Origin: Escherichia coli
Lineage (GTDB): Bacteria; Pseudomonadota; Gammaproteobacteria; Enterobacterales; Enterobacteriaceae
DNA: 64,000 nt
Strand: one strand, 5' to 3'
NCBI RefSeq assembly: GCF_003334335.1
Contig: NZ_QOWQ01000018.1
Part shown: piece after piece, positions 2,048-42,553 of the stretch
How the letters are laid out: each line of letters opens with the position of its first letter
Numbering within the stretch: the first letter of the stretch is position 1
The notes under the pieces: model-generated
What the model was told of the DNA's origin: nothing
What the model saw: only the letters and a program-made list of their open reading frames with translations
Databases searched by the model: none
Translations under genes and position numbers: made by a program

Positions 2048-3134
2048 CGTAGCAGCTCTTTACGAAAAGTTTGATCGCAGAACTGGCAAGGTTTACTACC
2101 AGTATAAAAATCCTGTGACTGGAAAATTTCACGGACTTGGGACAGACAAAGTCAAGGCAGAAAAAATCGCTGCAACAGCCAATCAGCGAATAGCTGCAGC
2201 AGAAGCAGAATATTTCATGCGCAAAATTGATGAAAGTCCATCAGCAACAAAACGTCGGGGTATCAGATTAAAGGCATGGGTTGATCGATATCTGAAAATA
2301 CAGGATTCGCGACTGAAAAATGGAGACATTGCAGCTACAACCCACAAAGAAAAAGTGCGAATGGCTGCATACCTGGTTTCCCGCCTGGGAAACCACCCAT
2401 TGAAAGAACTGGAGGTAAGAGACTTTGCATTAATACTGGACGAGTGGATGGATAAAGACATGGTCAGCACAGCAAGAGTAAATCGCGGATTATGGGTTGA
2501 TATTTATAAAGAAGCACAGCATGCGGGAGAAGTTCCTCCTGGATGGAATCCTCCGAAGGCTACCCGTAAACCGATCCCTAAAGTGACCAGATCCAGACTC
2601 ACCCTGGAAGACTGGCAAAAAATTTATAATGCAACGCCAGAAAAACACTTTATCCGTAACGCAATGCTTCTTGCGATTGTTACTGGTCAGCGCCGTGATG
2701 ACATTTGCCACATGCGTTTTTCAGATGTATGGAATGGACATCTACATATAACCCAAGGAAAAACCGGAATGCGTCTGGCCTTACCTCTTACGCTACGATG
2801 CGATGAAATTGGGGTATCGTTAAAAGAAGTTATTGATGGATGCAGGGACAGAATGTTGAGTCCATACCTAATCCATAGTAGGCACCAGAAACAACCAAAA
2901 CCGATGAGTAAAGACAACCTGAGCGATTACTTCGCCAAAGCGCGAGATCTGGCTGGAATAATTCCACCAGCAGGAAAAACACCGCCAACATTTCATGAAC
3001 AACGCTCCCTGTCAGAACGGTTGTACCGCGCACAGGGTGTCGATACAAAAACATTACTGGGACATAAAGTCCAGGCTACCACCGATCGCTATAACGATAC
3101 TCGAGGTCAGGAATGGGTTAAGTTGGTTATTTGA
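2016..3134 (+). CDS. int: Lambda-family tyrosine integrase
   Basis: 372 aa; the C-terminus (PPTFHEQRSLSERLY...LLGHKVQATTDRYNDTRGQEWVKL) matches the lambda Int catalytic region (R..H-x-x-R..Y pattern). AGGAG RBS lies 10 nt upstream. Confidence 0.9.
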   Translation: MSPRPRKNSTDVAALYEKFDRRTGKVYYQYKNPVTGKFHGLGTDKVKAEKIAATANQRIAAAEAEYFMRKIDESPSATKRRGIRLKAWVDRYLKIQDSRLKNGDIAATTHKEKVRMAAYLVSRLGNHPLKELEVRDFALILDEWMDKDMVSTARVNRGLWVDIYKEAQHAGEVPPGWNPPKATRKPIPKVTRSRLTLEDWQKIYNATPEKHFIRNAMLLAIVTGQRRDDICHMRFSDVWNGHLHITQGKTGMRLALPLTLRCDEIGVSLKEVIDGCRDRMLSPYLIHSRHQKQPKPMSKDNLSDYFAKARDLAGIIPPAGKTPPTFHEQRSLSERLYRAQGVDTKTLLGHKVQATTDRYNDTRGQEWVKLVI

Positions 3135-3197
3135 CAAACACCATATGGAATATCCGTCACCATCTCAGGAAAAAAGTGTTGTAAAATGCGTGGCCTT

Positions 3198-3235
3198 GTT
3201 TTGGGGAAAAGTTTTGGAGAGATTTTGGAGAAAGG
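3198..3235. repeat. Three tandem direct repeats (core TTTTGGRGA) between int stop and the potB/potC junction; candidate Int arm-type binding sites
   Basis: gTTTTGGGGAaaa / gTTTTGGAGAg / aTTTTGGAGAaagg at 3199-3207, 3212-3220 and 3223-3231, read directly from the sequence. Confidence 0.5.
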
Positions 3236-3259
3236 AAAAAATTGAATAAATTCAAAATC

Positions 3260-3304
3260 CTGAAAGTGCTCCACCTTATGAATAAGAAGGTGGAACTCGA
3301 ATGA
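3260..3304 (+). other. Putative prophage attachment-site core overlapping the last potB codons (...NKKVELE-stop) and the potC start
   Basis: Frame-2 reading ends ...LMNKKVELE with TGA at 3302-3304 overlapping the potC ATG at 3301. Upstream of about 3280 the sequence is phage (int) rather than potB. Exact core limits are not determinable without a reference. Confidence 0.35.
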
Positions 3305-4095
3305 TCGGTCGACTGCTTCGCGGCGGTTTTATGACCGCTATCTACGCGTACCTGTATATCCCAATCATTATTTTGATTGTGAACTCCTTTAACAGCTCGC
3401 GCTTTGGCATCAACTGGCAGGGTTTTACCACCAAATGGTATAGCCTGCTGATGAACAACGACAGCCTGTTACAGGCAGCGCAGCATTCACTAACAATGGC
3501 GGTGTTTTCGGCGACGTTTGCTACGCTTATCGGTTCACTGACGGCAGTTGCGCTGTACCGTTATCGCTTTCGTGGTAAGCCGTTCGTTAGCGGAATGCTG
3601 TTTGTGGTGATGATGTCACCAGATATCGTGATGGCGATTTCGCTGCTGGTGCTGTTTATGCTGCTGGGTATTCAGCTTGGCTTCTGGTCGCTGCTGTTCT
3701 CGCATATCACCTTCTGCCTGCCATTTGTGGTGGTGACGGTGTATTCGCGCCTGAAAGGTTTTGACGTGCGAATGCTGGAAGCGGCGAAAGATCTCGGTGC
3801 CAGCGAATTTACCATTCTGCGAAAAATCATTCTGCCACTGGCAATGCCAGCGGTGGCGGCGGGCTGGGTGTTAAGCTTTACCCTGTCGATGGACGATGTG
3901 GTAGTTTCTTCGTTCGTCACCGGACCAAGTTATGAAATTCTGCCGTTAAAAATTTATTCGATGGTCAAAGTCGGCGTATCGCCGGAAGTTAACGCGCTGG
4001 CAACCATATTACTGGTGCTGTCGCTGGTGATGGTTATTGCCAGCCAGCTTATTGCTCGTGATAAAACGAAAGGTAACACAGGGGACGTTAAATGA
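3301..4095 (+). CDS. potC: Spermidine/putrescine ABC transporter permease PotC
   Basis: 264-aa ORF recognised as E. coli PotC; 4-nt overlap with potD. Confidence 0.95.
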   Translation: MIGRLLRGGFMTAIYAYLYIPIIILIVNSFNSSRFGINWQGFTTKWYSLLMNNDSLLQAAQHSLTMAVFSATFATLIGSLTAVALYRYRFRGKPFVSGMLFVVMMSPDIVMAISLLVLFMLLGIQLGFWSLLFSHITFCLPFVVVTVYSRLKGFDVRMLEAAKDLGASEFTILRKIILPLAMPAVAAGWVLSFTLSMDDVVVSSFVTGPSYEILPLKIYSMVKVGVSPEVNALATILLVLSLVMVIASQLIARDKTKGNTGDVK

Positions 4096-5657: not shown

Positions 5658-6442
5658 AAAAATTCATTATACTGCTCAGTTTACTGATACTCCTGCCTCT
5701 GACAGCAGCCAGCAAGCCATTAATTCCAATAATGAAGACACTTTTTACGGACGTTACCGGTACTGTACCAGATGCTGAAGAGATCGCGCATAAAGCCGAG
5801 CTTTTTCGCCAACAAACGGGAATTGCACCGTTTATTGTGGTTTTACCCGACATTAATAATGAAGCCAGTCTCAGACAAAATGGTAAAGCGATGCTGGCGC
5901 ATGCGTCATCTTCATTGAGTGATGTAAAAGGAAGTGTTCTGTTACTATTTACTACCCGCGAACCACGGTTAATTATGATCACCAACGGCCAGGTTGAAAG
6001 TGGTCTGGACGATAAACATCTCGGCCTTCTGATAGAAAATCACACGCTGGCTTATTTAAATGCAGATCTCTGGTATCAGGGAATCAATAATGCATTGGCT
6101 GTTCTACAAGCACAGATATTAAAACAATCGACGCCGCCACTAACGTATTATCCGCATCCAGGACAACAGCATGAAAATGCTCCCCCCGGCAGCACCAACA
6201 CATTAGGTTTTATCGCCTGGGCTGCGACGTTTATCTTATTTTCCAGGATCTTTTACTACACGACTCGTTTTATTTATGCGTTAAAATTTGCAGTGGCGAT
6301 GACTATTGCCAATATGGGTTATCAGGCTTTATGTTTGTATATCGATAATAGCTTTGCGATTACCAGAATATCGCCACTCTGGGCAGGGCTAATTGGTGTC
6401 TGTACGTTTATTGCCGCATTGTTATTGACGAGTAAACGATAA
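5654..6442 (+). CDS. ycfZ: Inner membrane protein YcfZ
   Basis: 262-aa ORF with signal/TM segments; 4-nt overlap with ymfA; synteny. Confidence 0.85.
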
Positions 6443-6470
6443 AAGAGGCCGGAAAAGTGCGCGTGTATTA

Positions 6471-6571
6471 TGCCGGATGGGGCGCGAACGCCTTATCCGG
6501 CCCACAAAACCCGCAAATTCAATTAATTGCGTCCCCTTGCAGGCCTGATAAGCGTAGTGCATCAGGCAATG
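6471..6571. repeat. REP/BIME element pair
   Basis: GCCGGATGGGGCGCGAACGCCTTATCCGGCC and AGGCCTGATAAGCGTAGTGCATCAGGC palindromic units typical of E. coli REP. Confidence 0.8.
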
Positions 6572-7401
6572 CTTCCCGCTTTTAATCCCTTCAGCAACTT
6601 TTCAACAAACTCAGGCACCACCTGGCTTGCCGGGCCGTAATATTTCTCGGCAAATTCATTACCAACCTGACTCGGTTCAAGATTCAGTTCCACGGTGTGC
6701 GCGCCATGCAGTTTCGCTTCGTGAACAAACCCAGCCGCCGGATAAACATGCCCGGATGTGCCAATGGCAATGAAAATATCGGCCATCGACAACGCCATAT
6801 AAATTTCATCCATGCCGAGTGGCATTTCGCCAAACCACACTACGTGCGGGCGCAAGGGTGCCGGAAACTGGCAACAATGGCATTTATCTTCTGGGGTAAC
6901 GTCTCCTGTCCAGTCGAGAACCTGACCACTTTGTGAACAACGCACTTTCAGCAGTTCCCCATGCATATGAATCACATTGGTATTACCTGCGCGTTCATGC
7001 AGGTTGTCGATATTCTGCGTCACCAGCAAAAAGCGATCGCCGAGGGCGTCTTGCAGTTTAGCCAGCGCAAGATGCGCGGCGTTAGGCTGAATTTCTGGCT
7101 GCTGCAGCTGTCGACGACGGGCGTTATAAAACGCTTGCACCAGTTCAGGATCGCGATCGAAACCTTCCGGCGTTGCCACATCTTCAACCCGATGTTCTTC
7201 CCACAGGCCATCTGCGGCGCGAAAGGTACGAATACCTGATTCCGCAGAAATTCCTGCCCCTGTCAGTACGAGTACTCTTGGTTTTTCCATTGCTTCCGGC
7301 ACCACTTTATCTCTGAAAAAAATACGCTGACGCAAACGCTCGCGCAGGCGGCGTTTATTTTTACGAAAACGACTTAACCGATGACCCCGACGCGACAGCA
7401 T
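6562..7401 (-). CDS. cobB: NAD-dependent protein deacylase CobB (sirtuin), long isoform
   Basis: 279 aa with [14 protein letters not shown] Rossmann motif and a Zn-binding Cys cluster; Arg-rich N-terminal extension. Confidence 0.95.
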
Positions 7402-7416
7402 AGCAACCTCTGTTGT

Positions 7417-8328
7417 TTAATCGGTTAGATGTAGGAAGGCCGCACCACGCATTCCTCCCGCATCACCGTGGCGCGCGCGTTCAATGCGCGGAACACGAGC
7501 TACAGGTAAGAGATGACGAGGCAGCCTGTCCGCCAGTTGCGTTGTGATTGCCGGGAAATTCGATAAGCCACCACCAATGACGACCAGGTCAGGGTCAACG
7601 ATGGTCAGGATATTTCCCAGACAAACCGCTAATAAATCCAGATAACGCTCAACGTGCGCCCTTGCCTGCTCATCGCCTTGATCATAAAGCGCAATAATTT
7701 CGGGAGCCTGCAACGGTTGATGATAATAGTGTTGATACAGCCACGCAAAACCGCGACCAGACAGATAATTTTCAATGCAGCCATGCTGACCACAGCCGCA
7801 GCGGCGTAACGGGAAATCCAACCCCATCATGGTTAACGCATCAACCGGCAGACGCATATGGCCAAACTCGCCGGTAATGTAGCTTTTACCGGTAATCGGT
7901 TTGCCGTTGAAAATCAGCCCGCCGCCAACACCGGTGCCGAGAATCAACCCCATCACCAGTGGATATTGAGTAAATTCATCATCCCAGGCTTCTGAAAGGG
8001 CAAAACAGTTGGCATCGTTATCAAGGCGTACATCGCGATCAAGACGTGCGCTCAGGTCGGCACGCAGCGGTTTACCGCTGGCAGCGGGGACATTGGCGGC
8101 ATACAGCGTACCATCTTCTGTTTCCGGCATTCCCGGAATACCGATGCCGACAGAACCTTTACAGCCAAAACGTTGGTCAGCTTCAGCTACCAGCTCACAC
8201 ACTGCATCTAAAAATGCGTCATAGCTGTCACGCGGTGTCGGCACCCGCTTTTCCCACTGCAACTGCCGACCGCTATCAAACACGCCAAGCGCAATTTTTG
8301 TTCCACCAATATCAAACCCGTAATACAT
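7417..8328 (-). CDS. nagK: N-acetyl-D-glucosamine kinase
   Basis: ROK-family sequence; start set at [11 protein letters not shown] within the longer ORF 7417..8388. Confidence 0.9.
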
Positions 8329-8356
8329 TGCCGCTCCTTGTTTTAATGTACTGCCT

Positions 8357-11605
<3,249 letters not shown>

Positions 11606-40163: not shown

Positions 40164-40332
40164 AAAGAAAAAGGCAGCCTGTGGTTGCCTTTTGCCAATA
40201 ATTCGCACACATTGCGGGTTACTGCTTTATTTTCGTTCAGTGCTGATAACAAACATCAACCTGCAAAACGAAGCGCATAGTTTAAAATGGCTATCATCAA
40301 TACGCTATATCTGATGGAAAAAAATATGCCTA
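40164..40332 (-). ncRNA. sraB: Candidate small RNA SraB (approximate limits)
   Basis: Minus-strand terminator (AGGCAACCACAGGCTGCCT then TTTTTCTTT) ending about 37 nt upstream of the yceD start. Placement from remembered K-12 coordinates. Confidence 0.4.
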
Positions 40333-42192: not shown

Positions 42193-42553
42193 GTTTCCGT
42201 GTCCATCCTTGTTAAAACAAGAAATTTTACGGAATAACCCATTTTGCCCGACCGATCATCCACGCAGCAATGGCGTAAGACGTATTGATCTTTCAGGCAG
42301 TTAGCGGGCTGCGGGTTGCAGTCCTTACCGGTAGATGGAAATATTTCTGGAGAGTAATACCCAGTCTGTTTCTTTGATAATTGCGCTGTTTTTCCGCATG
42401 AAAAACGGGCAACCGACACTCTGCGCCTCTTTGAGCTGACGATAACCGTGAGGTTGGCGACGCGACTAGACACGAGGCCATCGGTTCACACCCGGAAAGG
42501 CGTTACTTTGCCCGCAGCTTAGTCGTCAATGTAAGAATAATGAGTAAGTTACG
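42193..42553 (+). promoter_or_regulatory. rne 5' leader (autoregulatory untranslated region; approximate start)
   Basis: 572-bp divergent interval between rluC and rne; a long structured leader is known for rne. The 5' limit is not determinable by eye. Confidence 0.45.

Follow-up and report, generated by a model that had tools for sequence, protein, structure and literature searches.

Described forms of CobB

In E. coli MG1655, both CobB isoforms (31.5 and 26.7 kDa) were seen with an anti-CobB antibody (2026 NAR paper, PMC12926920). An NAD+-dependent deacylase activity has been reported for both of them (PMC6209979, PMC12926920, PMC10965786). Polyphosphate and dsDNA are bound only by the long form, CobB-L, with KD values of 48.8 nM and 6.42 uM, respectively, and only CobB-L is inhibited by polyphosphate (PMC12926920). 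The two forms of Salmonella enterica, CobB_L (273 aa) and CobB_S (236 aa), are like those of E. coli: the extension, basic and hydrophobic, has 37 residues, the second Met is at position 38, and the sirtuin core is active in both (PMC10965786). The N-terminal segment of the Salmonella protein drives its oligomerisation and makes it sensitive to Zn2+ (PMC10965786), and in the same organism CobB-L is regulated through N-terminal acetylation by YiaC (review PMC8603916). According to the same review, the two isoforms are conserved in Enterobacteriaceae, with the exception of the genus Erwinia.

More distant sirtuins share only a part of this organization. The class III proteins human SIRT5 and Archaeoglobus Sir2-Af1 have a similar catalytic core, matching CobB over residues ~32–273 (E = 1e-44 to 1e-46), but they are without an Arg-rich N-terminal tail of the CobB-L kind. 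The N-terminus of SIRT5 is a mitochondrial presequence.

The cobB locus

We are highly confident that the locus analyzed here is E. coli cobB, coding for a Sir2-family NAD+-dependent protein lysine deacylase, and that it gives two proteins from one reading frame. It is found in the window (the whole stretch of DNA analyzed, 64,000 nt), downstream of nagK. The coding sequences are:

6562..7401, minus strand: cobB long CDS (CobB-L, 279 aa plus stop), from the ORF list, RefSeq and NF001755
6562..7290, minus strand: cobB short CDS (CobB-S, 242 aa plus stop), starting at M38, from K-12 RefSeq YP_010051180.1
7417..8328, minus strand: nagK, the gene upstream of cobB, from RefSeq annotation and sequence

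The nagK stop codon (TAA) lies 15 nt before M1, the first codon of cobB, and the gene order in the annotated identical E. coli locus is nagK-cobB-ycfZ (RefSeq). A 1301-nt query around cobB had a match in 5426 of 5426 complete E. coli genomes, with an identity of at least 99% in 1699 of them. K-12 MG1655 showed 0 nt differences to the window across the cobB CDS and 450 nt upstream. The window therefore holds another copy of the K-12 gene, with the same two start codons, that of CobB-L and that of CobB-S.

The K-12 RefSeq record for b1120 has two CDSs, one of 840 nt (NP_415638.3) and one of 729 nt (YP_010051180.1, “CobB-S”), the latter starting 111 nt downstream. The first 30 nt of the K-12 CobB-S CDS are identical to the window from position 7290 downward. 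A first-pass annotation, made from the letters of the window, had described a 279-codon ORF with an Arg-rich start and a second Met 37 codons on, before the Rossmann motif. Both coordinates, 7401 and 7290, were confirmed; its range of 7290..7401 corresponds to the extension (37 codons) and one further base, the first of the second ATG. It had further proposed that the internal start gives a shorter isoform, and the K-12 RefSeq CobB-S CDS does start at the same ATG. Its statement that long and short isoforms are known in enterobacteria is borne out by the experiments in E. coli (PMC6209979, PMC12926920).

The domain content agreed with this assignment. The Pfam SIR2 domain (PF02146) covered residues 48–221, over model positions 1–180 of 180 (E = 5.8e-54). 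The NCBIfam equivalog NF001755 aligned residues 1–275 to profile positions 1–275 of 278, with a score of 599.8 bits (cut-off 318 bits). A GAGIS Rossmann motif was found 10 residues after M38. Residues G48-A49-G50, S52, H147, C155, C174, C176 and C177 were present, and they were invariant in 48 Enterobacterales sequences. We take GAGIS to be the NAD+ motif, H147 the catalytic His and the Cys cluster the zinc module. Y92 and R95 were also invariant in the alignment, and are presumably the residues recognizing acidic acyl groups.

The PDB entries 1s5p and 6rxj were essentially identical to CobB residues 39/40–279 (E = 1e-161 to 5e-165). Every solved structure of E. coli CobB starts at residue 39 or 40, and thus contains the short-form core only.

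An Rfam scan of the whole 64,000-nt window gave no match at cobB. Elsewhere in the window, the scan recognized the rne 5’ UTR element (RF00040) at 42193..42529 on the plus strand, with 260 bits, and the sRNA SraB (RF00077) at 40164..40332 on the minus strand, with 211 bits; these E. coli features are already known and have no relation to cobB.

At the 3’ end of the gene, a REP-like palindrome, GCCTGATGCACTACGCTTATCAGGC, located at 6543..6567 on the minus strand, overlaps with the end of cobB, in its final sense codon and TGA stop. In a divergent Escherichia genome (78 differences in 900 nt) the stop comes six codons earlier (...KGL*), giving a CobB of 273 aa as in Salmonella. This makes it look as if the final six residues (KAGSIA) had been added recently, by extension into the REP element.

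The N-terminal extension

The part of the protein specific to CobB-L is encoded by the first 37 codons:

7291..7401, minus strand: codons 1–37, Arg-rich extension specific to CobB-L, from sequence, conservation and NF001755

The 37 residues of the extension include 12 Arg, 3 Lys and 3 Asp/Glu. The enrichment in Arg is significant against a background of 5.5% (binomial P = 4e-7), and Lys plus Arg make up 15 of 37 residues in the extension versus 21 of 242 in the core (Fisher P = 3.5e-6). Searched alone, the 37-aa extension still matched NF001755, at profile positions 1–36 (E = 8.9e-12). AlphaFold2, with a 48-sequence alignment as input, predicted a helix at residues 3–28, at low confidence (block-mean pLDDT 54–68). 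This was followed by a non-helical, low-confidence linker at residues 29–42 (pLDDT < 50 for residues 28–36), and then by the confidently predicted sirtuin core.

The first-pass annotation had called the extension basic and amphipathic. The basic character stands, with 12 Arg and 3 Lys. For the amphipathic character, the hydrophobic residues L9, F12, L19, L23 and I27 do follow each other at roughly 3–4 residue spacing, but the helical hydrophobic moment of the extension was not above that of shuffled controls in any window (P = 0.2–0.8), which leaves the “amphipathic” label without support. A more fitting description of the extension is that of a strongly basic helix along which a sparse hydrophobic stripe runs. 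The same results bear on the idea of an amphipathic, membrane-targeting helix, toward which the predicted helix at 3–28 and the spacing of its hydrophobic residues would point. We rejected it as unlikely, due to the hydrophobic-moment test, together with the very low mean hydrophobicity of the extension, and because the published partners are polyphosphate and DNA (PMC12926920).

We compared the extension across 80 Enterobacterales loci, one per species. It was found in 80 of 80 species, at one locus each, and an ATG equivalent to M1 was present in all 80. The median number of Lys plus Arg was 14, and the median net charge +11. R8, R22 and R24 were invariant in the alignment of the 48-sequence subset. 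In Enterobacteriaceae, the basic block opens with R-L-x-R-F-R-K-N-K-R, and variants of it were recognizable in Erwiniaceae, Yersiniaceae, Hafniaceae and Pectobacteriaceae. After the basic block, the 80 loci had a variable linker of about 6–16 residues.

Compared with Salmonella, the extension had a pN of 0.059 and a pS of 0.586. Within Enterobacteriaceae its dN/dS was about 0.05–0.1, similar to that of the core. These substitution patterns indicate that the extension is under purifying selection and translated as protein. They also bear on whether M1 is an annotation over-extension, with the short protein alone being real and codons 1–37 an untranslated leader. Such a reading could draw on the crystal structures, all beginning at residue 39/40, and on the many sirtuin models (e.g., NF040867, NF001753) that start aligning near residue 37–40. 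It has next to no chance of being correct: all 80 species conserve the extension as protein, with a dN/dS similar to the core, the Shine-Dalgarno sequence (SD) is stronger at M1, and CobB-L was detected with a native antibody (PMC12926920). We rejected it because pN is far below pS in the extension.

Start codons and their initiation context

The two start codons and the SD sequences preceding them are:

7399..7401, minus strand: M1 ATG, CobB-L start, from sequence; ATG in 80/80 loci
7407..7411, minus strand: Shine-Dalgarno AGAGG, 5 nt upstream of M1, from anti-SD duplex energy
7288..7290, minus strand: M38 ATG, CobB-S start, from sequence; ATG in 51/80 species
7293..7297, minus strand: GGAAG, a weak sequence of SD type 2 nt before M38, from anti-SD duplex energy

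M38 lies in the same frame as M1, downstream of it by exactly 37 codons (111 nt). By chance, some in-frame Met would occur among the first 60 codons in ~81% of cases, and therefore its presence alone means little. What gives M38 its meaning is where it sits, at the boundary of the domain, together with its conservation, the mRNA around it and the experiments already published.

The anti-SD duplex at M1 had an energy of -6.5 kcal/mol, which ranks among the top 4% of all cobB mRNA positions, and the means at M1 across species were between -6.4 and -7.7. At M38 the duplex reached only -3.6 kcal/mol (22nd percentile). Some relatives have a strong SD before ATG38, as GGAG in Klebsiella (-8.4), GGAGG in Hafnia alvei/paralvei (-10.8) and a sequence of -11.0 in Edwardsiella.

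The mRNA from -30 to +30 around M38 is A-rich and had a minimum free energy of -6.5 kcal/mol, which puts it at the 97th percentile when the windows of the transcript are ranked by lack of structure. In the comparison of species, the z-score for structure in this region was +1.29 where codon 38 is ATG versus -0.12 where it is not a start codon (Mann-Whitney P = 5e-6, in a test that treats species as independent and does not correct for shared ancestry). Codon usage nearby, in codons 30–42 (7276..7314 in the window, minus strand), pointed in the same direction. In Enterobacteriaceae the rare codon AGA is strongly preferred at R30 (32/36) and R42 (38/43), with CGN used for the other Arg of the extension, and GAA39 and AAA40 are nearly fixed after M38. 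This pattern is consistent with selection keeping the initiation region at M38 rich in A and free of structure. Together, the sequence comparisons support M38 as a real initiation site. In the main texts of the literature, we found no ribosome-profiling evidence for an internal cobB start.

The short species could also be a proteolytic fragment of CobB-L, with M38 being coincidental. The linker at residues 28–41 is predicted to be disordered and could be protease-sensitive, and in-frame Met codons within 60 codons are common by chance. This explanation is extremely improbable, because CobB-S also arises from constructs making no CobB-L (PMC6209979), and because ATG38 is kept in 51 of 80 species with co-varying unstructured mRNA, and with strong SDs in Klebsiella, Hafnia and Edwardsiella. 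We rejected it on these constructs and on the conserved initiation context.

Promoters of the two forms

The promoter regions of both forms were delimited by published deletion constructs, and can be placed in the window as follows:

7431..7818, minus strand: interval in nagK with the CobB-L promoter (-417..-30), from deletion constructs, PMC6209979
7720..7748, minus strand: predicted BPROM candidate for the CobB-L promoter, PMC6209979
7319..7351, minus strand: predicted BPROM candidate -35/-10 of the CobB-S promoter (cobB +51..+83), PMC6209979

The published primers cobB-417 and cobB-30 map to 7818–7799 and 7431–7403, and the Umehara primers correspond exactly to the window positions 7818, 7431, 7401 and 7290. 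Both CobB species were detected from His-tagged constructs in which 1218 or 417 nt of upstream sequence were included; those beginning at -30 or +1 yielded CobB-S only, and from one that began at the second Met there was no CobB product (PMC6209979). Since CobB-S was still made from -30 or +1 and nothing was made from M38, its promoter was placed within +1..+111 (7291..7401 in the window), inside cobB, next to the CobB-L promoter at -417..-30, inside nagK (Umehara 2018, PMC6209979). The western blot of tagged CobB and the start-site mapping suggested in the first-pass annotation have therefore, in essence, already been published, with two protein species and two promoter intervals (PMC6209979).

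The sequence itself gave no support for either of these promoters. A consensus promoter scan of 6400..8600 gave no sigma-70-like site, and the published BPROM hexamers were weak on inspection, so that the case for the internal promoter comes from the published reporter constructs. Synonymous sites in codons 2–37, compared in 45 Enterobacteriaceae, had an observed/expected ratio of 0.96, and 21% of the core windows were as low. Without an excess of synonymous constraint, the comparison gives no independent signal for an embedded promoter.

These negative results would fit CobB-S being produced mainly by independent initiation at M38 on the long nagK-cobB mRNA, without a separate internal promoter. 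The unstructured M38 region (97th percentile) can by itself allow initiation, and this feature tracks ATG38 across species. We regard this as possible, with the balance clearly against it: the constructs at -30 or +1, which are without the CobB-L promoter, still gave CobB-S, and the M38 construct gave nothing (PMC6209979). Further, two transcription start sites are reported for cobB in Salmonella (review PMC8603916). Internal initiation on the long mRNA thus cannot be the sole source of CobB-S. The internal promoter, which remains our preferred reading, and internal initiation could operate together.

Codon 38 across Enterobacterales

Among the 80 Enterobacterales loci, codon 38 was ATG in 51, GTG in four and a non-start codon in 25. 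It coded for His in nearly all Erwiniaceae loci and for Tyr in one, for Leu in Serratia, Rahnella, Rouxiella and Hafnia psychrotolerans, and for Thr in two further loci. S. enterica diarizonae was 90% identical and had an ATG at both start positions. Salmonella CobB differs from that of E. coli by ending 6 residues earlier, and by minor substitutions in the extension, e.g., Q2, F6 and L18.

Erwiniaceae CobB shares the conserved basic block, as R-L-x-R-x-K-K-x-R-R...R-F-R-Q-R-I-F-E-R-D, but differs in having His (once Tyr) at codon 38 and no equivalent internal start, in agreement with the review PMC8603916. By sequence, our comparison reproduces, on a larger set of species, the published absence of the short-form start in Erwinia.

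The internal start codon is polymorphic within the Citrobacter species group. Codon 38 was GTG in Citrobacter youngae CCUG 30791 and Citrobacter sp. Cu233, and ATG in another C. youngae strain.

In the lineages with Leu-38 (CTG/CTA), an ATG is conserved at a distance of five codons upstream (...RD[ST]M AAA...), and the internal start may have shifted to it. Inside the basic block, about 20 codons upstream of where codon 38 aligns, a start-type codon recurs in one alignment column: GTG in most Pantoea loci and in Serratia, ATG in Mixta, Brenneria and Pectobacterium, and TTG in most Yersinia. This column may be a conserved hydrophobic position (V/M/L), or an alternative start.

A tentative view, which we consider rather improbable, is that the long form is ancestral across the order and that the position of the internal start shifted between lineages, instead of being simply lost.

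Proposed roles of the two isoforms

From the locus and the published experiments, the following model can be drawn. CobB-L (279 aa) would be translated from the ATG at 7401, with its good Shine-Dalgarno AGAGG, on transcripts beginning upstream, inside or before nagK. CobB-S (242 aa) would be translated from the ATG at 7290, on a transcript from a promoter inside cobB codons 1–37, its start lying in unusually unstructured, A-rich mRNA and preceded by no more than a weak SD. The full sirtuin core is common to both proteins. CobB-L carries in addition a tail with a net charge of about +12, which is probably a single long helix, basic in character, attached by a flexible linker. This tail would act as a polyanion binder, for polyphosphate and, more weakly, for DNA. 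It would give CobB-L its own localization and its own regulation, by polyphosphate inhibition, oligomerisation and, in Salmonella, N-terminal acetylation.

The most likely role of the extension is therefore that of a polyanion-binding regulatory tail, given its basic helix and the published binding of polyphosphate and DNA by CobB-L alone. We infer that the basic helix itself is the surface contacting the polyanion. The guess in the first-pass annotation that the extension affects localization or substrate choice fits with the published polyphosphate and DNA binding and polyphosphate inhibition, found for CobB-L only.

The finding is already known: the literature and the K-12 reference annotation carry both isoforms. 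With all of it published and the short isoform in the reference annotation, no new question is opened by this locus. What our comparison adds are small details, namely mRNA that is unstructured around M38, SDs that are strong in some genera, and an alternative ATG further upstream in the Serratia/Rahnella group. A small practical point concerns annotation. The PGAP annotation of an identical E. coli locus (one pipeline-annotated record, with cobB at 2800–3639) has the long cobB CDS only, whereas the curated K-12 record has both isoforms. The short isoform is thus unannotated in at least that PGAP record.

For the biology of E. coli, CobB is the main protein deacetylase, and its two isoforms matter because the long one alone is tethered to polyanions (polyphosphate, DNA) and regulated through them. 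This ties the control of acetylation to stress and to DnaA-dependent replication initiation. If the shifted starts are used in other lineages, a design with two or three isoforms differing in tail length would have been selected across Enterobacterales, and not only in Enterobacteriaceae.
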